A stretch of DNA of 64,000 nt from an uncultured Verrucomicrobiae bacterium (GCA_963769025.1 CAVYKI010000012.1:192001-256000); one strand, 5' to 3'; shown: positions 29,511-62,151, numbered from the stretch's first letter. A program made the numbers and translations. The notes: generated by a model not told the origin, from the letters alone.

Positions 29511-29568
29511 AGGGCGGCGAAGGTTCCGCGTCGCGCGCGCGGCGTCCACTTCCGAATTGGAGCGCGAG

Positions 29569-29693
29569 TGTGGAGCGCTGGCGTCCCCGCCGGCCACGCT
29601 CATCTGCGAAGCACCATTCTTCTTCGCACGCCGGACAGAGAAGGTGGCGCTTCGCGTTGTGTTGCATGGCCGGCGGGACGCCAGCGCTCCACA
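29569..29693. repeat. Intergenic GGAG-type REP doublet
   Basis: TGTGGAGCGCTGGCGTCCCCGCCGGCCA ... TGGCCGGCGGGACGCCAGCGCTCCACA inverted arms. Confidence 0.85.
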
Positions 29694-29736: not shown

Positions 29737-32700
29737 ATGCGAATGCTCCCCCTCCTGCTCATCACCGCCGCGGTTTGCAGCGCCGCCGTCACGCCGCCGG
29801 AGCAGATCAAGGTGCCGCCGGGGTTCAAGGTCGAACTCCTGCGCGAAGCCGGGCCGCGCGAGGGCTCGTGGATCTGCATGGCGCAGGACGGCCAAGGGCG
29901 GCTCTACATTTCGCCGCAGGGCGCGATCCCGGAGAGCGGCTTCGGCAAGGACAACAAGTGGGGCGGCATGTGGCGCACGACGATCGTCATGACCGAAAAT
30001 CCCACCGGCAATATTCAGCCGCACATCATCAAGTGGGAAAGGGTGAAGGTCCCCGTCGGCGACGCCATGGGCATGCTCTGGGCGTTTGACTCCCTCTACG
30101 TCTCCGGCATGGGGCCGCAGGGGCGCGGCATCTACCGCTGCACTTCCAGCAAGCGCGACGGCAACCTCGACACCGCCACGCTTTTCAAGGCAATCCCCGG
30201 CGGCGCGGGCGAGCACGGCGCCCACGCCATCGTCCTCGGGCCGGACAAAAAGCTCTACATCGTCAACGGCAACAGCACCGGCATCCTCGACGGCCTCGCG
30301 CCCGACTCCCCGTATCGCCATTGGGGCGAGGACGACCTCCTCCCGCGGCTGAAGGATCCCGTCGCCACCTTCTTCGACAAGCTCAAGGCCCCCTACGGCT
30401 GCGTCTATCGCACCGACGCCGACGGCACGAAGTGGGAGCTCTTCGCCGGCGGCTTCCGCAATCCCTACGACATCGCCTTCAACCCCGACGGCGAGCTCTT
30501 CACCTACGACAGCGACATGGAGTGGGACCGCGGCCTCCCGTGGTATCGCCCCACGCGCATCCTCCACGTCGTCCCCGGCGGCGAATACGGCTTCCGCGAA
30601 GGCAGCGCGAAATGGCCCGCGTATTTCCCCGACTCGCTCCCCGCCGTGGCCGACATCGGCGTCGGCTGCCCCACCGGCATGAAGTTCGGCACCGAGGCGA
30701 AGGGCTGGCCGGAAAAATACCGCCGCGCGCTCTTCATCCACGACTGGACATATGGCCGCATCCTCGCCGTCACCCTCCACGAGAAAGGCGCGAGCTACAC
30801 CGCGAGGAACGACCTCGCCAGCCATACCTACCCGCGGGACGCCGAGGCGAACGGCGACGTGGAAGTCTTCCTCAGCGGAAAAGGCATGCCGGTGACGGAC
30901 CTGGAATTCCTGCACGACGGCTCGATGGTCTTCACCGTCGGCGGCCGCGGCACCGCGGCGGCGCTGTATCGGGTGAGCTACGTTTCCGGCGCCCCCTCCG
31001 GGGCGCATCGCGATTCCACCGGTAATCCGGTGGTTTCACCACCGGCTAATATCCTTCGTCCCTCCGGGACGAACGCAAGCGCACCGTCAACGAGCAATCC
31101 ATCCGCAAACTATCCGCCCGCCAACAATGCGCCGGAGGCGCAGCGGAAGTTAGCCGGTGGTGCAGCGAGCGAAGCGAGCGCAACCACCGGATCGCTGACA
31201 GCAAAAGCAAGCGCCCCGGATGGGGCGCGGGAAGGCGTCAGCGAAAAGCCAAAGCATTCAGGCGGTTTCGATGAAGCCGTCGATCGGGAAGACGTGCGCA
31301 AGATGATGCTTTGGTCCGCGTCCGTTGCCACTCGCGACCACTATGCCCTCCAAGACTCGTGGCCATCAAACCGCGACATCGGGACACCTCGGGGGCTTGC
31401 CGGTAGAATGGTGATGGAATCCGGCCTTTACCCCGAGTTCAGAAACAAAGCCCTCAATGAAGCGGATGATGCTATCGCACTTCCTTCATTGCTCGCGCTC
31501 GCCCGCGTGGGTGCCTCTACAGATCAAGCGGCCATTCTCGCAAGACTCACCAAATTCCCCCTCGCCTCGCTCTCCGACGACTTGAAGCTCCTCAAACTCC
31601 GCGTCCTCGAACTGAGCTTCGCGCGGCAGGGGCGGCCTTCGGAGGAACGGGTGAAGGCCCTGATGGAGGAACTGCTGGCGCATTACCCGGCAACGAACGT
31701 GGCGAAGGGCGCGGCGGCGAGTGGAGCGCTGCCGTCCCCGGCGGCCACGACACCAAACGGCGAAGCCGCACTTCCCAATGGCGCACGGAATGCAAACGCG
31801 CATGAAAGTGGCGCTGCGCGCGGAGCGACCTGGCCGGCGGGGACGCCAGCGCTCCACTCGCCGTCGCTCCCCGTGGATGACCCCGCGTGGCGGCTGAACC
31901 GCGAGCTTTGCGCCCTCCTCGTCTGGCTCTCGAATCCCGAACTCGGCGAACCGAACTCCGCACTTCCGGCGAAGGCGCAGGGCGCGGCGCGTCCGCAATC
32001 GGAAGCGCGCGCTGCGGCGAACAACGCCAGCGCGAAACCGAAGGACAACGATGCCCTTCCCTCGGAAGCGCCGCCGGTGCCGGGAGGCGGTAAAGTGATC
32101 AGTAATCAGTCAAAAGTAATCAGTGAAGCGCAGCCGACTGATCACTCATCCCCGCGCCGAACCCCGGCGCGGACATTTTCCCCGGCCGCAAGCCCGCGCC
32201 TTTCCAGACGGAACTGGGCCGGCAGGTGATCGAGAAGACGCTCGCGCTCATGGACGCCGCGCCTTCGCAGGAGGAGCAAATCTGGTATGCGCTCTGCCTG
32301 CGCTGGGCGCACGGGTGGACGCCCGAACAGCGCGTGCGGTATTTCCGCTGGTTCCACGAAAAGGCCGCGCGCTACACGGGCGGGAATTCGTTCGCGAAAT
32401 TCGTGGAGGCCATCCGCGCCGATGCCGCGTCGCGCGTGCCGGAGGCGGACCGCGCCGCGCTCGCGGACTGGCTGCGCCCCGTCGCCGCGCCCACTCCCGC
32501 CGCCGCGCTGAAGCCACGCGCCTTTGTAAAGGCGTGGACTTTGCCCGAACTCGAAGCCGCGCTCGACAGGCTGAAGGACCGCCAGCCCGACCTCGCGCGC
32601 GGCAAGGAACTCTACACGCAGGCGCAATGCGCGCAGTGCCATCTCTTCCGCGACGCGGGCGGCAACGTGGGGCCGGACCTCACCGCCGTCGCGCAGCGCT

Positions 32701-33011
32701 TCGGCCGGCACGACATCCTCGAATCCATCACCGACCCGAGCAAAGTCGTGAGCGAGCAATACGCGATGGTGACGCTCACCGTGCTCGACGGCAAAGGCGG
32801 CACCGCCGAACTGAGCGGGCTCGTGAAGGAGGAGACGAGCGCAACCATCACCATCCTCACCGACCCGCTCGCGGGGAAGACGGCGAACCTCTACAAGAAC
32901 GTCGTGGTGAAGACGGAGAAGGCCGCCGTGAGCACGATGCCCCCCGGATTGCTGAACACGCTGACGGCAGAGGAAGTCGCGGACCTGCTGGGGCTCTTCG
33001 GCACCAAGTAG
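29737..33011 (+). CDS. PVC-type dehydrogenase-like beta-propeller/HEAT/cytochrome c protein, with several repeat insertions and one frameshift (~32142-32226)
   Basis: Signal peptide; IKVPPGFKVELL, GEHGAH, GFRNPYDIAFN, DSDMEWD..LPWYRPTR; C-terminal CAQCH, GPDLT, STMPPGLL in a shifted frame. Confidence 0.85.
30983..31233. repeat. Inverted pair of ~90-105 bp multi-hairpin elements inside the heme-protein CDS
   Basis: 30983-31071 and the reverse complement of 31129-31233 share CGCCCC.TCCGGGGCGC, TCCGGTGGTT and CACCACCGGCTAA..TCC blocks. Confidence 0.85.
31707..31871. repeat. GGAG-type REP doublet inside the heme-protein CDS
   Basis: GTGGAGCGCTGCCGTCCCCGGCGGCCA (31721-31747) ... TGGCCGGCGGGGACGCCAGCGCTCCAC (31831-31857) with extended flanking complementarity; sister of 29569-29693. 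Confidence 0.85.
32094..32146. repeat. AGTGATC/AGTAATC heptad inverted element inside the heme-protein CDS
   Basis: AGTGATCAGT (32094-32103) and ACTGATCACT (32137-32146) form a perfect IR; AGTAATCAGT occurs twice. Confidence 0.7.
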
Positions 33012-33118
33012 CCGCCGACGGAAGGAGGCGGGCTGATTTTCCTTCTCGCGTTCCGCAATCCGCGCTCCGCTTTCAAAGTGCCCGCCTCCTTCCGTTGGCG
33101 GCTACGGTTGCGGGCCGC

Positions 33119-33893: not shown

Positions 33894-35172
33894 ATGAGCA
33901 CCATCACCGCCCTGAGGGCCGTCAAAGGCAACACGAAGTCCAAAGTCGAAGCTGAACTCTCCAAGACCGGCGGCCTGCTGCGCCTCGCGCCCTGCTGGGT
34001 GCCGCGCGTCGTTCCTCCAGCCGGGCAAGCGGCTGAAGCTGCATCCGGACGATCTCTACGCCTACGGCCTGAACCGCGGCGGCATCGACGAGCGCTGGTT
34101 TGCCTCGCACGACGCCCGCGGCGAACGAAAACCGCACGCCGGACGAAGGGCTGAGCTACGTCGTCGTCGGCAAGGCAGCGGTTCACGCTTGCAGCAGGCC
34201 GTGGAGGACTGCGGCGCGACGCTCATCGGCAGAATCGATCTGGAACAAGTACAAGAAGTGGCCGGTCTATTCGAAGTTCTTCGACAACATGGGGCCGATC
34301 CCGCACCACATGCACCAGTCGAAGGAGCAGGCGAAGCTCGTCGGCCAGGAAGGCAAGCCGGAGAGCTATTACTTCCCGCCGCAGCACAACAACGTCGGCA
34401 ACAATTTCCCCTACACGTTCATGGGCTTCGAGCCCGGCACGACGAAGGCGCAGGTGCGGAAGTGCATCGCGAACTGGAACAAGGGCGACAACGGCATCCT
34501 CGATCTCTCGAAGGCCTACCGCCTGAAGGCCGGCACGCGGCTGGCTGATCGATCCGTGCATTCTGCACGCGCCGGGCTCGCTCTGCACGTACGAGCCGCA
34601 GTGGGGCATCGACGTTTTCGGCATGTATCAGAACCTCGTCGAGGGCCGCGAAGTGCCGTGGGCGCTGCTCGTGAAGGACATGCCGAAGGAGCAAGCACAA
34701 GGACATCGACTTCATCGTCGAGCAGCTCGACTGGGACAAGAACGTCGACCCGAACTTCAAGGACAACCACTACCTCGAGCCCGTGCCCGTCGCCGACACG
34801 CGCAAGGAAGGCTACGTCGACCGCTGGATCGTCTACGGCAAGGTCGACGGCGAGCAGCTCTTCACCGCGAAGGAACTGACCGTCGAACCCCGGCGCGAAG
34901 GCGACGATCAAGGACAACGGCGCCTACGGCCTCATCTGCGTGCAGGGCAGCGGCAAGATCAACAGCCAGCCGCTGAATCGCCCGAAGCTGATCCGCTTCC
35001 ACGAGCTGACCGAGGACGAATACTTCGTGCACCGAGGACGGCGCGAAGGCGGGCGTGACCTTCGAGAACACCAGCGAGACCGAGCCGCTGGTCATCCTGC
35101 GCTACTTCGGCCCCGAGGTGAATCCGGACGCGCCGGCAGATGGGCGCGTATCGCAAGAACAAGTTCAACTGA
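33894..35172 (+). CDS. Cupin/phosphomannose-isomerase-like conserved protein, multiply frameshifted
   Basis: Consecutive fragments LRLAPCWVPR / LKLHPDDLYAYGLNRGGIDERWF / SKFFDNMGPIPHHMHQ..GKPESYYFP / LHAPGSLCTYEPQW / FENTSETEPLVILRYFGP in alternating frames. Confidence 0.7.
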
Positions 35173-35214
35173 CACTCTCCCGCAGAAACCAAACACCAAA
35201 CCAACAACATCAAG

Positions 35215-35682
35215 ATGAAATATCTCAAGATAACCGCATTGCTCGGGGCCGCGATCAGCTTCGCCTTCACCTCGTGCAACAAGGCGCCCGACGAAAAAAC
35301 GGCCATCGCGAATTTCAAGAGCGAGATCGAAAGCGTCGGCAAGTGGATCGAGGAACAGAAACCGGCGGCAAACGATCCGTTCGGAGCGGAGGCGTCAAAT
35401 CAGATCATCGCCAGGCTCAAAGCCATCAAGACCGATGGCCTTCCGGAGGACCTCAAGTCCGCGTGGGCCGAGATGAACGCGGTCTTCACGGAGATGGGCG
35501 AGTTCTTCAAGAGCATGCCAAAGATCGATGTTTCAAAACCCGAGGAGATCAACAAGGCGAAGGCAGAACTCGGGCCGAAGATGATGGCCATCCAGGCAAA
35601 GGTGGAACCTGTCGCGAAGAAGCTCGAGGAAGTCGGAAAGAAGCACGGCATCGATATGTCGAAGGTCGCGCCCGGCAAGTAA
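35215..35682 (+). CDS. Helical lipoprotein
   Basis: Lipobox FTSC; host-like codon usage. Confidence 0.75.
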   Translation: MKYLKITALLGAAISFAFTSCNKAPDEKTAIANFKSEIESVGKWIEEQKPAANDPFGAEASNQIIARLKAIKTDGLPEDLKSAWAEMNAVFTEMGEFFKSMPKIDVSKPEEINKAKAELGPKMMAIQAKVEPVAKKLEEVGKKHGIDMSKVAPGK

Positions 35683-36460: not shown

Positions 36461-39442
36461 CTACTTCGCCGGTTCCTTCAGCGTCTGCAGGAACGCCTCG
36501 ATGTCGGCAATCTCCTGCGGCTTCAGGATGAGCCCCATCGGCGGCATGGGCGAGATGCCGAGTTTTTCAAAACCCTTCGCGAGCACCTTGTTCGGCTCCA
36601 GCAGGCTTTCCTTGAGGTAGGCGGCGTTCTGACGCGCGGCGATGCCGTCGAGCGCCGGGCCGACGGTGCTGCCCTGCCGCCGAGCATGTGGCAGTTCTTG
36701 CACGCGGCGACGGGATGGTTCCAGAAGATGTCCTCTCCGCGCTTCGCATCGCCCGCGAGCGACTTTCTCGGAATCGGATCTCGAGCGGCAGCAATTCACA
36801 GAGCTTCACGTCGTCGAAAGTGGCCATCGCCCTTCGCGACGTGCAGGATGTTGATGCTCGCCTTCGGCTTGTCCTTGTTCGTGAAGGTCGCCTCGACTTC
36901 GGTCCAGTCGCTCTCGCGCGCGGTGACTTTGTTCGTCTCCGCGCGGCCGACGTGGTCGTTGAGGCTGACCTTGCCGCGGAAGGCGTGGACCTTCACCCAG
37001 CCGCTGAGCCGGTAGCTCGTGTTCGGCTTCAGCGGCACGTCCTGGTAGAGACTGGTGTCGGCGTCGTCGCGCGTGATGCAGCGCACGCGCGCTTCCGCCG
37101 CCGTGCGCATCGGGCGACCACCTTCCACTCCGCACCCTTGTTGCCCGGCCTTGCTTGCCGTAGTCGCGGCGCTTCCAGCCCTCGGGCAGTCCGTCGGCGC
37201 CGAGTTTTTCGAAGTCGCCGTTCACGAGAAGATTCGGGCCTTCCTTGAACGCGGCGGCCTTGTGTTTCTTCACGAGCATGCGCGCGGCTTCCCGCAGCCA
37301 TTCGTCGCCCTGCACGGCGGGCTCGGCGGCGAGTCGTGCGACGAGGGTTTTGATCTCCGGTGTGGTGGGGAAATCGGCGAGCTTCACAAATGCGGCGAGC
37401 CGCGTGTGCAGGTCGGGATCGCTCACGACGCCGGAGCCGAAGAAGAGCTCGCTGCGCCGCCGCGTCGTCGCCGAGCGCGCGGATGGCGTTGCGGCGGAGG
37501 CGCGGCGTCCTTCGCAAGCAGCGCGGCCTTGTGGGTGTCGTCGTCGAGCAGGCCGAGCCCGTGCAGCGCCCACAGCGCGTGGATCGCGCCGATGGCTCCG
37601 TCGTTCGCGATGACGAGCTTGCTTCAGCGCCGGACGCTGCGTCGGCTCTTCTTGCCGTCCACGATCATCCCCTGCGCGAGCAGCCGCCAGTACTGGGTGT
37701 CGCGAATTCGAGCGCCGCCACGAGATCCGCCGTCGGTGCGCCGGCGAGCGGCTTGGGCATCGCCGCGGGCGTGTCCTTTGCCACGACGCGGTAGATGCGC
37801 CCGCGATTGATGATCGCGCAGCGGATTCTCGTGCGCGCCGCCGACGCCGGTCTTCGCCTCGTAGCCGCCGCGCGCGACGCTCGGCGTGGGATTGTGCTGG
37901 ATGATGAAATTCTGCCAGTCCGCGAACCACACCGCGCCGTCCGGACCGACCTCGGCGAAGACGGGCGACATCCACTCATCGCTGCTCGCCACGAGATTGA
38001 AGCATCCTTCGCGCCGTCTAGCCTGCGCCGTCCGGCTGCACGTCCATGAGGCGATGCAGCTTCATCGTCGGCTCGCAGACCATCGCCTTGCCCTGGAAGC
38101 GCGCGCGGCAGCTTCGCCGAGTAGATGAAACGACCGCTGCCGCGGCCGCCGCAGCGTGTAGCCCGCCGAAGACATCCACCTGCCGGTAGTTCGGCGTGAT
38201 GGCGTGCGCCTGTCCTGCACGACGTTGATTTTCTTCGCGGTCATCACGCGCAGCCCCGCGGGCACGACGCTCGCCGGGATGCCGCCGAAGAAGATCGGCG
38301 CGCCGTTCGCCGTGCCGCCGAACTGATCGCCCGCGTCATTCGCGCTGTGCGCCCACGCGTTGTTCGTGAACTGATGCAGGAACTCGAGCGCCGAGCCGTC
38401 CGGCTTGAAGCGATAGGTGCCCATCGCGAAGTCGAACGGCTTCCCGCCGACCGTGCCCTCGAAGCCCGAGTAGCCGACGCAGCCGTAGAGCCAGTTGTCG
38501 TAGCCGTAGTGCAGGTTGCTCGCCTGCGCGTGCGTGTCGCGGATGCCCCAGCCGTCGATGATGCACCTCGCGCACGTCGGCCTTGTCGTCGCCGTTCGTG
38601 TCCTTGAGGAAAAGGAAGCGCGGCGGCTGCGCGACGATCACGCCGCCGCGGGCGAAGACGATGCCGGTCGGGATGTTCAGCTTGTCGGCGAAGACGGTGA
38701 ACTTGTCCGCCTTGCCGTCGCCATTCGGTGTCCTCGCAAATCTTGATGTTGTCGTGCCCCTCGCCGTCCTCGGCTGACGCCGTGCGGATAGTCGCTCGTC
38801 TCCGCGACCCACAGCCGCCCGCGCTCGTCCCACGCGAATGCGATGGGCTTCGCGATGTCCGGCTCGCTCGCGAAGAGCTCCAGCTCGCAGATCCGCCGGC
38901 ACCTGCGTGCGCTCCATCGTGCCCTTCACGCTGAACGGATGCTGAAAGGTGATCGCCTCCGGGCGCTTCTCGTAGTTCGCGACATTCGGATTCTGCTCGC
39001 GCATTTCCGGTTCGCGCTGCGCGAGAAATTTCTCCCAGTCGGATTTCGCCGCCGGGTCCACCGTCGCAAGGATCGTCGAGCGGATCGCCGCAGGCGCTTC
39101 GTTGTCCTTCACCGTCACCACGCGTTGCTTCGCTTTCAGTGCAGAAAGCGCGGGCGCATCGCCGCCACCCAGCACCATCGCCACATCGTAGAGCGCGGCC
39201 ATCTTTTCACTGAGGCCCGAGGCCGGCGTGAAGTAGTCGAAGTAGATCGCATCGCGCCCGAGTTGCTCCATCGCGACGCGCAGGACGCCGGCCTTGCCCT
39301 GCTCCGCGCCGGCCGGATCAAAGAACAGAACCCGCAACGGCCGCGGCTCCGCGGCGAACGCGCCTGGAATGGAGGCGGTGAACATCGCCGCTGCGGAGAT
39401 TGCGAGGCAGGAAGCGGCGAGCGGACGGCGAATGCAGTTCAT
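36461..39442 (-). CDS. PVC-type heme-binding CxxCH protein with CBM4/9-like domain, multiply frameshifted
   Basis: DGKADKFTVFADKLNIPT, DTHAQASNLHYGYDNW, GPDGAVWFADW, RGRIYRV; GPNLLVNGDFE...LKPNTSYRLSGWVK; CKNCH near 36690; SPMPPMG. Confidence 0.8.
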
Positions 39443-39498
39443 GGCGTTGGAGGATGGGAGTGTGCCTATCCATAACCGCAAGCCCGCCCAAACCAATC

Positions 39499-39528
39499 TG
39501 ACATCTTTTGTGGGAAATCGGACACCCG
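39499..39528. promoter_or_regulatory. Putative AraC-family operator (copy 1)
   Basis: TGACATCTTTTGTGGGAAATCGGACACCCG, 25/30 identical to 42036-42065. Confidence 0.6.
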
Positions 39529-39760
39529 TCTCACCCGCCAGCCCGGATGCCACGACTAGGTCGCAGACACGATGCGAGTCGGGGATCTTCCGCAGGCCGA
39601 TGCCAGGACAGCGTTCCGGTCACACTACGCGCGAGCAACATCCGCTCAGCGGAGCCCTTTCGAGTTTGGACCGCTGCTTCCCGCGTGCCGTGGCGGGCAT
39701 CTGCGGGATACGATGGCGACCTGATACCGCACTTCTCCTCCTAAAAGAGGAAGGATCCGG

Positions 39761-44424: not shown

Positions 44425-46835
<2,411 letters not shown>

Positions 46836-60276: not shown

Positions 60277-61642
60277 TTAGCGGAGCACCTTCTTCCAGCG
60301 AGCGAGTTGCGCGGCGACATTGCGCGGCGACGGCGCTCCGATGCCCTTCCGCGCCGCCATCGCGGTCGCGAGTTTGAAGCAGCGGAAGACACCTTTTTCA
60401 AATGCCGGTGACAGCACGCGCCAGTCGGCAAGCGTGAGCTGCGGCAGGTCGCAGCCGCGCTGCGTGCAGAGCGCCACAGCCTTGCCGACGATCTCGTGCG
60501 CGCTGCGAAACGGCACGCCGCGGTTCACGAGATAATCGGCGACATCCGTCGCGAGCAGCATCGGGTCGGCGACGGCGGCGGCGCATGCGGCGGCGTTCAC
60601 CTTCGTGCCGCGCAGCATCCCGGCGAAGACGGCGAGCGCGGCCTTCACCGTGTCCACGCTGTCGAAGACCGGCTCCTTGTCCTCCTGCATGTCGCGGTTG
60701 TAGGTCATCGGCAGGCCCTTCAGCGTCGTGAGCAGCGAGACGAGATTGCCGATGACGCGCCCGGTTTTGCCGCGCGTGAGCTCGGCGACATCGGGGTTCT
60801 TCTTCTGCGGCATGAGCGACGACCCGGTGGTGTAGGCGTCGCTGATGGTGACGAACTTGAACTCGCTCGACGCCCAGAGGATCACATCCTCGCTGAGCCG
60901 CGAGAGGTGCGTGGCAACAAGCGCGAGCGCGGCGAGCAGTTCCACGGCAAAATCGCGGTCGCTCACCGCATCCATCGAGTTCTGCGTCACCTCGGGGAAG
61001 CCGAGCAGCTTCGCAACAAGCTTCGCGATCGAGCACGATGGTCGAGCCCGCGATGGCGCCGCTGCCGAGCGGCAGCACGTTCATCCGCTTGCGGCAATCC
61101 GCGACCCGTCCGAGATCGCGCTCCAGCATCTCCACGTAGGCGAGCAGGTGATGCGCAAAATACACCGGCTGCGCCCGCTGAAGATGCGTGTAGCCGGGGA
61201 TGATGACGTCGCTGTTCCGCCCGGCGAGATCCACGAGCGCCCGCTGCAAGTCGCGCAACAGCTCGCCGATCGCATCGCACTCGTCCCGGAGATACAGCCG
61301 GATATCCAGCGCGACCTGATCGTTCCGCGAGCGCGCCGTGTGCAGCTTCGCGCCGGCGTCGCCGATGCGCTTCGTCAGCTCGGCCTCGATGTTCATGTGG
61401 ATGTCCTCCAGCTCCGTCTTGAAACGGAACTTTCCCGCCGCGATCTCCGCGCCGATTTTCCGCAAGCCCTCGACGATCTGCGCGCGCTCCTTTTTGGAAA
61501 TCAGCCCCGCCTTTTCCAGCGCCGCGCTGTGCGCGATGGAGCCCTCGATGTCATGCCGCCACAGCCGCCAGTCGAAGCTGATGCTCTCGCTGAACGACTG
61601 GAGCAGTGCGGCGGTTTGTTCTTTGAATCGGCCTTTCCACAT
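60277..61642 (-). CDS. argH: Argininosuccinate lyase (frameshift ~61020)
   Basis: MWKGRF, EDIHMNIE, HTARSRNDQ, PGYTHLQRAQP, GSSLMPQKKNPD. Confidence 0.96.
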
Positions 61643-61713
61643 AGGGCGCGGAGCATTCCGCACGCGCCGCGCCGGTGCAAGAACGGGCTGTTCGACCTCC
61701 GCGACAGGATGTC

Positions 61714-62151
61714 CTATTTCGACCCGCCGTTTGGACCCTCGTCCTCAACACCGATCTTCGCACCCGTCGCGTCTCGGATGTAATCGAGCTCGAATTTCGC
61801 GCCGACAGCCCTCGCTTTGTCCTTCACCGTCACCAGCACTTCGCCCTCCGTGACTGCACCGGGCGCAAAGCCGCCCATCTCTCCGCGGATCACGAAGTGC
61901 TTCCGGGAGCCGAGATCCGCACCCGCAGCGTCGAGAACGGTGATGAGAACCTTCGCGCGGACAATTTGAACCGCTGCCTTGCTTGTCACCCGGTATGCGA
62001 CGTTGACGTGATCTCCGCTGCGGGGAGTGACGGACGTCATCTCAACACGGAGCATGCTGTTCAGCTTCTCCTCGGCAGGAGTCACGGCCTTGTTGCATCC
62101 CATGAGCGACAACAGGAGCAGTCCCGCGGCGAATGCGATGCGCGGCTTCAT
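61714..62151 (-). CDS. Small lipoprotein (Ig-like fold predicted)
   Basis: Lipobox LMGC; beta-rich sequence. Confidence 0.6.
   Translation of the reverse strand: MKPRIAFAAGLLLLSLMGCNKAVTPAEEKLNSMLRVEMTSVTPRSGDHVNVAYRVTSKAAVQIVRAKVLITVLDAAGADLGSRKHFVIRGEMGGFAPGAVTEGEVLVTVKDKARAVGAKFELDYIRDATGAKIGVEDEGPNGGSK

Follow-up and report, generated by a model that had tools for sequence, protein, structure and literature searches.

A gene on the plus strand at positions 29737-33011 of a 64,000-nucleotide stretch of DNA from an uncultured Verrucomicrobiae bacterium (GCA_963769025.1, CAVYKI010000012.1:192001-256000; hereafter the window) encodes a PVC-type heme-binding CxxCH protein, and its reading frame stays open through three palindromic repeats that are unrelated to one another, as an original prediction made from the sequence of the window had described. 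Element A (30984-31233) is an inverted pair of three-hairpin units of about 100 nucleotides (nt) each, element B (31707-31871) is a doublet of repetitive extragenic palindromes (REPs) carrying a GTGG tag and resembling a REPIN (a REP doublet that forms a hairpin), and element C (32094-32150) is a hairpin made of heptad arrays. We consider it probable that this is a normal gene under purifying selection, whose weakly constrained loops took up hairpin-forming, non-autonomous mobile repeats. The evidence is that (i), the repeats belong to families found in related genomes, (ii), in relatives, units of A and B flank transposase genes, (iii), the same sites are filled in some orthologues and empty in others and, (iv) purifying selection acts on the host gene both before and after a frameshift that lies at the end of C.

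The host gene and its three repeats

The gene is read in two frames. The upstream one (frame 1, 29737-32229, plus strand) starts with an ATG at 29737 and remains open over 830 amino acids (aa) up to a TGA at 32227-32229, which ends it only because of the frameshift; it encodes a signal-peptide-like N terminus, a beta-propeller extending to about 30990, a variable linker and HEAT-like helices. The downstream one (frame 0, 32142-33011, plus strand) encodes the remaining HEAT-like region and a C-terminal cytochrome c domain at about 32586-32993, and closes with a TAG at 33009-33011. This continuation in frame 0 is conserved (PAPNPGADIFPGRK..ELGRQVIEKTLALMDAAPSQEEQ.., then the cytochrome c domain) and is collinear with orthologues that consist of a single open reading frame (ORF). 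The C-terminal part matches TIGR02603, the heme-binding domain of PVC-type CxxCH proteins, with 92.6 bits, above the cut-off of 68.15, and the downstream frame also matches Pfam Cytochrom_C (35.8 bits). The heme-binding motif itself (CAQCH, 32628-32642, plus strand) was read from the sequence and from the orthologue alignment. In what follows G000 is the genome of the window, G001 and so on are related genomes, L numbers are fetched loci and P0002-P0004 are homologues from protein collections. Eight orthologues align around CAQCH, where AQCAQCHLFRDAGGNVGPDL is identical in G012, G015, G001 and G003 and differs by one residue in G014 (our count of five identical orthologues out of eight includes this last one). 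The N-terminal part scores 44.4 bits against TIGR02604, below the cut-off of 122.2, and the upstream frame matches GSDH with 15.8 bits; despite the low TIGR02604 score the propeller is common to 3306 cluster representatives (E <= 0.001), and the best matched stretches of the 150 representatives listed stop at query residue ~417-425, that is at ~30990. A search of solved structures with P0003 matched the cytochrome domain only. The heme-binding protein is predicted to be periplasmic.

The gene was matched in all 18 other sampled genomes of the genus and in none of 12 genomes from other families of the order. Among eight orthologous frames that were retrieved, seven include the start codon and are single ORFs of 1026-1286 aa, and the G007 frame (1124 aa) starts within the gene, after an in-frame TAG near the 5' end. 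P0002-P0004 are single intact ORFs too. Compared with G012, G014, G015 and G003, the ratio of nonsynonymous to synonymous substitution rates (dN/dS) lies at 0.29-0.43 for the propeller and at 0.23-0.32 for the 285-286 codons that follow the frameshift, and no stop precedes 33009 in the downstream frame. Purifying selection thus acts on the gene before as well as after the frameshift, and the gene is not decayed; the dN/dS near 1 that the original prediction associated with a decayed pseudogene is not what we find.

Element A consists of a left unit in reversed orientation (30984-31071) and a right unit in forward orientation (31130-31233), and reads ..SGAPSGAHRDSTGNPVVSPPANILRPSG..NAPEAQRKLAGGAASEASATTGSLTAKASAPDGA.. 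in the protein. Its outer arms (30984-31006 and 31211-31233; 23 nt, 91% complementary) and inner arms (31028-31067 and 31132-31171; 40 nt, 73% complementary) form a nested palindrome, and the fold predicted for a 258-nt stretch reaches -134.4 kcal/mol (z = -7.5), which none of 200 shuffled sequences matches. Each unit contains three hairpins: H1, GYCCCGGAGGGRC, both sides of which seem to covary across copies when judged by eye; H2, TTAGCCGGTGG..CCACCGG, with a loop of variable length; and H3, GCGCCCCGGNNGGGGCGC, followed by GGGAA. Among the six frames of A the gene's frame alone is free of stops; both flanks share this frame, and the insert contributes ~83 codons. The left unit contains a hairpin motif resembling the Acido-Lenti-1 RNA (RF01687): the match at 31027-31071 (plus strand; 36.2 bits, E 1.1e-5) spans the whole 46-position model and corresponds to H2 and H1 read on the opposite strand, and there is a weak mirror match on the minus strand at 31128-31157 (17.5 bits). 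Another copy in G000, at C1:4484-4529, scores 40.2 bits on the same model. Matches to microRNA families of Rfam were far under their gathering scores and were ignored.

The A unit is widespread in the genus. Of 30 genomes, 27 gave matches, the highest number in a single genome being 51, where these figures, like those for B and C below, are matches among the candidates scored and not copy numbers. Among 22 non-orthologous loci, 17 are doublets in (+,-) arrangement with 10-60 nt between the units and five are single units, and 19 of the 22 lie outside any long ORF. At five loci picked since a Y1_Tnp match adjoined an A unit (L058-L062), the units bracket a Y1 transposase ORF of ~150 aa in every case, the unit upstream of the ORF being in forward and the one downstream in reverse orientation; the two of these ORFs that were scanned match NF033573 (IS200/IS605 transposase) with 60.3 and 65 bits, above the cut-off of 55. 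Because its units bracket transposase ORFs in relatives, flanking Y1 (HUH) transposase genes on both sides in inverted orientation, A is taken to be a gene-less pair of IS200-type Y1 (HUH) transposase end modules of the Acido-Lenti-1 type. The peptide encoded by A, used as a query among longer proteins, retrieved only orthologues of the heme-protein gene (5 proteins among 1361 candidates).

Some further occurrences of the A unit deserve mention in their own right. Locus L078 (G002:C52:1-1900) carries, at about 448-637, a paralogue with DUF7133 and HEAT regions in which an in-frame (+,-) A doublet sits in the HEAT region; its peptide, ..SPEGLGKLAGGETTGS..SSAPSGARPDAGGDPVVSPPANFHQPSG.., uses the same two unit reading frames as the heme-protein gene. 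The TTAGCCGGTGG..CCACCGG hairpin was found in at least 125 stretches, from Planctomycetota, Verrucomicrobiota, Acidobacteriota and a small number of further phyla. Many are inverted pairs at a distance of ~100-130 nt, and in this genus the hairpin brackets IS200-type transposase genes. In G000 itself, a 360-aa ORF that resembles an IS110-family transposase by eye lies between A-unit fragments (C3:278700-280450) and may be an insertion sequence (IS) that landed in a repeat.

Element B occupies, relative to the orthologues with an empty site, an insert of 180 nt (31696-31875), which amounts to 60 codons and keeps the frame. Its arms (31707-31747 and 31831-31871) are 41 nt long, 90% complementary and 83 nt apart, and the whole is predicted to fold at -111.2 kcal/mol (z = -7.5; 0 of 200 shuffles match); five of its six frames are open. 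An arm is composed of GTGGAGC, GCTGGCG, TCCC and CGCCGGC in succession, and all four arms, those of a second copy included, have a 7-bp stem and a 3-4-nt loop, as befits a tagged REP. This second copy (29558-29693) lies 44 nt 5' of the start codon, and its site is cleanly empty in the closest relative G012, whose intergenic region is otherwise closely similar. Elsewhere in G000 there is a lone arm-like match, at C3:462837-462863. In the genus, B was matched in 15 of 30 genomes, with up to 34-37 matches per genome; nine B loci comprise five between ORFs, one that is the G001 orthologue and three in the upstream part of stop-to-stop frames. In relatives, B arms flank ORFs for a REP-associated tyrosine transposase (RAYT) at both loci looked at (L056 and L057; NF047646, 90.1 and 85.1 bits, cut-off 80), and RAYT genes are present in G000. 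We take B to be a REP doublet (REPIN), of a type found beside RAYT genes in related genomes. A search with the B peptide among longer proteins returned only the query, which is weak evidence.

Element C starts at 32094 with five AGTNATC heptads (AGTGATC AGTAATC AGTCAAA AGTAATC..), continues with an 8-nt spacer and ends with a short inverted array, ACTGATC ACTCATC; in frame 1 it reads KVISNQSKVISEAQPTDHSS. It contains a perfect 10-bp inverted repeat (32094-32103 and 32137-32146). Its predicted fold is weak (z = -2.6; 3 of 200 shuffles equal it) and, as for A, only the gene's frame is free of stops. Five of 30 genomes of the genus contain related heptad hairpins, made of an array and its inverted counterpart, and several of these hairpins are intergenic. 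In G017 one such hairpin (L037, G017:C186, about 1490-1580) lies in frame in an intact 765-aa PSCyt2/PSD1 protein, within the PSD1 (DUF1553) match, where it reads SSVISNQSSVISKKAPLNTESLITDYLLF.

The segments that hold the elements differ in composition from the rest of the gene. The G+C content at third codon positions (GC3) is 0.83-0.97 in the domains, as against 0.47-0.70 at 30997-31536, 0.57 at 31717-31806 and 0.50 at 32077-32138, and the linkers are hypervariable and low in GC3 in all orthologues. Disorder-promoting residues (A/G/P/S/T/N/Q/E/K/D) make up 82-89% of A, B and the third linker and 56-63% of the three longer domain segments. Within the right unit of A that orthologues share, dN/dS is 0.35-1.7, a range based on few changes, and the changes fall on all three codon positions. 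The stretch between A and the first well-conserved HEAT helices (31234-31536) is low in GC3 in all orthologues and saturated between them, with dN > 1; it aligns to the family consensus (S.DR..R.AAR.ALE..) and is thus a fast-evolving part of an otherwise conserved protein.

We propose that single-strand-DNA Y1 transposases, or recombination between copies, would scatter the units. Copies that land in a tolerant loop, with a length that is a multiple of three and without a stop in the gene's frame, would escape removal by selection, and those retained would be inherited as A/G/P/S/T-rich and, to judge from their composition, probably flexible linker peptides; such inserts may well be neutral to the protein.

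Filled, empty and replaced sites

The site of B differs between orthologues. It holds the doublet in G000, G001 and P0004 and is empty in G015, G003, G006 and G017; G012 and G014 carry there a shorter, GTGGAGCG-type palindrome, and G007 an unrelated palindrome, GGGGGGCCGTC..GACGGCCCCCC. Contigs of a relative (X2 record 16, X15 record 11) bridge 31690 to 31873 with 59 other letters and likewise lack the B doublet. The element columns are rare in the wider family: in an alignment of 70 sequences, 1-6% of the others have residues in the columns of B and ~7% in those of the third linker. The site of C is without the element in P0003 and P0004, and C was found in G000 alone among 15 distinct homologous sequences compared. 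The G012, G015, G014 and G003 orthologues, and a G032 locus that was taken to be the orthologue, share the A right unit with 88-94% nucleotide identity, and both units are present in P0002 and P0003.

Mapped on a tree of 16 rows, the A right unit is present in nine of the ten rows that form the closest clade, and all four rows of the next clade lack it; the left unit is present in G000, P0002 and P0003. The B doublet is found in G000, P0004 and G001 and is absent from G003, the well-supported sister of G001, so that the pattern requires either recombination or a minimum of two gains or losses. Other inserts specific to single orthologues are palindromes or heptad hairpins as well: G014 has an (AGTGCTC)n hairpin at a propeller loop, and G012 a (CAGGAGT)n hairpin inside a HEAT helix pair. 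Together with the dispersed families and the three different palindromes at the B site, these filled and empty sites bear out the proposal of the original prediction that loops have been colonised repeatedly and tolerantly. The prediction had also placed the inserts between domains, which is true of A, located at the end of the propeller (residue ~418, ~30990), and not of B and C, which lie in loops within the HEAT-like region.

Separately from these sites, the G012 orthologue (L013, G012:C81, 3475-3783, minus strand) contains an in-frame, AT-rich array of palindromic words of 309 nt (..AAAGCACATGCTTTT..), translated as KAHAFTANTHAFTSKADAF.., with a GC3 of only 0.15-0.30. At the linker where G012 has this array, G014, G006 and P0002 have different tandem arrays.

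The same comparisons bear on the idea that the inserts are native low-complexity linkers that merely resemble genomic repeats, or even gave rise to them, with no insertion at all. The linkers are indeed hypervariable and poor in GC3 in every orthologue, and the A right unit is held by nearly the whole closest clade. However, a genome has tens of occurrences of the units, in intergenic DNA and around transposase genes, the empty sites are clean, the wider family lacks these columns, and the palindromic symmetry of the inserts has no rationale at the protein level. We regard this explanation as largely refuted and as very improbable.

A second alternative, raised in part by the original prediction, is that the hairpins are kept for a role at the RNA or DNA level, such as ribosome pausing between domains for folding or export, or mRNA protection or processing and, for C, a slippage switch that turns the heme domain on or off. 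Heptad arrays can shift the frame by slippage, a form of phase variation, and C may behave in this way. The stability of the hairpins predicted for A and B (z of -7.5 in each) and the recurrence of palindromes at one loop in several lineages would suit such a role. So would the divergence of the A right unit: its core differs from the orthologues at 6.2-16.1% of sites, compared with 13.6-18.7% at four-fold sites of the domains, and is below the four-fold level in two of the four comparisons, with the changes falling on all codon positions. On the other hand, the B site is empty in four orthologues and most members of the family do without any of the three inserts, so nothing essential depends on them; the elements found at one site differ in sequence and length; the A and B families appear to be mostly intergenic; and the conservation signal is weak, comes from non-independent comparisons and would be mimicked by gene conversion among copies. 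A retained RNA- or DNA-level role is therefore, in our opinion, unlikely. We also think it quite unlikely that the loops are true hot spots for hairpin-repeat insertion by single-strand-DNA transposases in which some inserts were co-opted, the A unit for a structure at the nucleotide level and C for a slippage switch; were it so, C would reversibly uncouple the cytochrome c domain from the exported propeller.

Several observations weigh against the acquisition of mobile repeats by loops of a normal gene, which we nevertheless favour. (i), The copies in the gene look inherited in the G000 lineage, where no insertion event was observed. (ii), A is low-copy in G000 (9 matches), no IS200-type transposase scored above its cut-off in that genome, and the H1 ends of the pair in the gene face each other, the opposite of all 17 sampled doublets. 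(iii), The left unit of A stays below the RF01687 gathering score of 37, and the model gave no match at E <= 0.01 in 13 related loci (transposase-flanking and orthologue loci). (iv), B has two full copies in G000, both at the heme-protein gene, and its arms taken singly fold like shuffled sequences (z -0.6 to -1.0). (v), The lower divergence of the A right-unit core (one-sided Fisher p of 0.03, 0.004, 0.08 and 0.48 for core versus four-fold sites, in comparisons that are non-independent) is a weak hint of some DNA or RNA constraint instead of pure neutrality. (vi), In this assembly C is out of frame with the downstream sequence, the distance between the conserved anchors around it being 71 nt, so that tolerance is unproven for C in G000.

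The frameshift at the edge of element C

Two anchors common to relatives delimit the frameshift: ..PSEAPPV, which ends at 32079 in frame 1, and PAPNPGADIF, which starts at 32151 in frame 0, their separation of 71 nt being 2 mod 3. Frame 0 has four stops between 32090 and 32141, the last of them the TGA that occupies 32139-32141, and frame 2 becomes open only at 32117. Since conserved frame 0 sequence resumes at 32151, a single event must fall within 32142-32153 (plus strand), at the 3' edge of C, where the original prediction had located the only frameshift of the gene. The possible changes are one base or one heptad missing in 32142-32153, or two extra bases within 32117-32153.

One explanation is that the gene was recently broken: the insertion of C, or slippage with loss of a 7-nt unit, would have altered the length by something other than a multiple of three, and the cytochrome c domain would no longer be translated with the exported N-terminal part. 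The position is suggestive, as the zone of the shift (32142-32153, or 32117-32153 for two events) is the 3' edge of C and represents ~1% of the 3.27-kb gene. C is confined to G000 among the homologues compared, its site being free of the element in P0003 and P0004; loss of one heptad gives the observed -1 shift; and the right array is short, 14 nt against 35 nt on the left, unlike the copies in L034 and L037. The chance that frame 1 would be open through C is ~1 in 3. To these points must be added the nature of the assembly indels, which include single extra bases and no single missing base.

The quality of the assembly argues in the other direction. From 111 ORFs of G012, 60 have an orthologue in G000 (>= 70% identity, >= 50% coverage, taken across G000), and 7 of these 60 are broken in G000 by 11 frame changes over 25,150 aligned residues; an initial set of 26 matched ORFs had 4 broken ones, with 7 changes. 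Comparison of the DNA shows that the differences which change the frame are extra bases in G000, 14 single and 2 double, with 0 single missing bases, and three of the 11 frame changes consist of two close extra bases, the class that would fit the shift at the edge of C. The G012 orthologue contig gave no hits against the window and is not syntenic with it. Within the window, argH (60280-61780, minus strand) and katG (44425-46782, plus strand) are each split by one extra base, with both halves intact. The window genes and the genome-wide survey thus point to an insertion-rich assembly that often breaks conserved genes. A missing C in the CCCC run at 32149-32152 was considered as the cause and set aside as one possibility only, the assembly indels being extra bases that are not tied to homopolymers. 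The downstream part of the gene also evolves as slowly in dN/dS as the upstream part and has acquired no further stop, the seven orthologues with a start codon and P0002-P0004 are intact (G007 has the one in-frame TAG near its 5' end), and a heptad hairpin is accommodated in frame in the intact G017 gene. Sequencing runs were searched for reads of this organism; none contained more than 0.44 of the sampled words, and the contigs obtained were only those of relatives, with none spanning 32080-32160. We consider an assembly error and a real, recent lesion tied to C about equally likely, and give the recently broken gene, as an account of the whole, slightly less than even weight.

It could also be imagined that the two frames encode two proteins, or are joined by programmed frameshifting: the TGA at 32227-32229 shares bases with a GTG that starts at 32226 (GTGA), and both frames are intact. 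This we find hardly credible, as no homologue compared is divided there (the start-containing orthologues and P0002-P0004 being single ORFs), the conserved frame 0 sequence begins 75 nt ahead of the GTG, and a lone cytochrome c domain would presumably be without a signal peptide. No slippery motif was seen, though no search for one was made.

Other features near the gene may be listed here. A GTAG-tagged REP doublet (33008-33105; 26-nt arms, 96% complementary) begins within the last codons, and the TAG stop of the gene is part of its GTAG tag; it is the fourth repeat family to touch the heme-protein gene, and with 120 BLAST matches it represents the abundant REP population of G000. A third gene of the window (34100-35679, plus strand) shows a frame change near 34620. 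At 36464-39619 (minus strand), a paralogue of the heme-protein gene with DUF7133, CBM_4_9 and cytochrome c pieces is spread over at least four frames; it may be a real pseudogene, or a gene in which the same assembly errors are numerous.

Relation to known in-frame repeats and significance

In-frame palindromes have been described before. The relevant passages of Di Nocera, De Gregorio and Rocco (2013, BMC Genomics 14:522; PMC3733652) report intragenic, in-frame REPs and dimers with GTAG and CGTC tags, commonest in Opitutus terrae, a verrucomicrobium whose name appears 70 times, roughly once in each row, in supplementary file 3. They describe an O. terrae family in which GTAG is mutated to GTGG; among the intragenic REPs as a whole, dimers predominate and some ORFs are hit twice, and the authors argue that the inserts are neutral because the hosts are modular proteins. 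As in those passages, tagged palindromes and dimers lie here in frame in a gene of known function. By comparison with what is reported there, however, the inserts are larger (60 and about 83 codons, against a usual 20-30, or 43-82 for clusters), three unrelated families occur in one gene with a fourth at its stop codon, and an orthologue series is available, with empty and filled sites and different palindromes at one loop.

According to the corresponding section of a review on miniature inverted-repeat transposable elements (PMC10969869), Rickettsia palindromic elements (RPEs) are palindromes of ~100-150 bp that lie in frame in unrelated genes, are translated, and are regarded as leaving the fold and function of the protein unharmed. 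The elements studied here differ from RPEs, as described in that section, in host phylum and in sequence; no transposase is known for RPEs, whereas relatives have Y1 transposases that are cognate to A and B. As in-frame REPs and RPEs are already published, the present gene is one more, well-documented example of behaviour already known, and its repeats are no new type of element.

Measured against the REPIN-RAYT systems, as set out in the parts of Bertels and Rainey (2011; PMC3116915) that define them and of Quentin et al. (2018; PMC6006769) that classify them, B is alike in being an inverted REP doublet hairpin that appears to be dispersed and whose arms flank a RAYT gene in relatives (2 of 2 loci). 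It differs in that REPINs are defined in those parts as extragenic, whereas one B copy is translated, and in that G000 holds two full B copies despite its RAYT genes and an abundant other family with a GTAG tag.

The Acido-Lenti-1 motif is listed in Weinberg et al. (2010; PMC2864571), and the passage on it in a 2026 preprint still gives its function as unknown; the accounts of the motif in these two sources, in the portions concerned, mention no transposase. The left unit of A agrees with the whole of the model, at a score just under the gathering score, and differs in being a piece of a ~100-nt transposase-flanking DNA repeat within a coding sequence and not a stand-alone RNA gene. A further context, that of a translated part of a transposase-associated DNA repeat, may thus be added for this unexplained motif.

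There is also a warning for annotation. Genes of this type are easily miscalled as pseudogenes, the more so in an assembly that has many single-base insertions, and peptides encoded by repeats can seed spurious homology.

For the biology of the family, the orthologue series offers a view of hairpin repeats of the RAYT and IS200 types being gained, lost and replaced in one conserved gene without breaking it, and it illustrates, outside Rickettsia, how selfish palindromes may lengthen the linkers of a protein.

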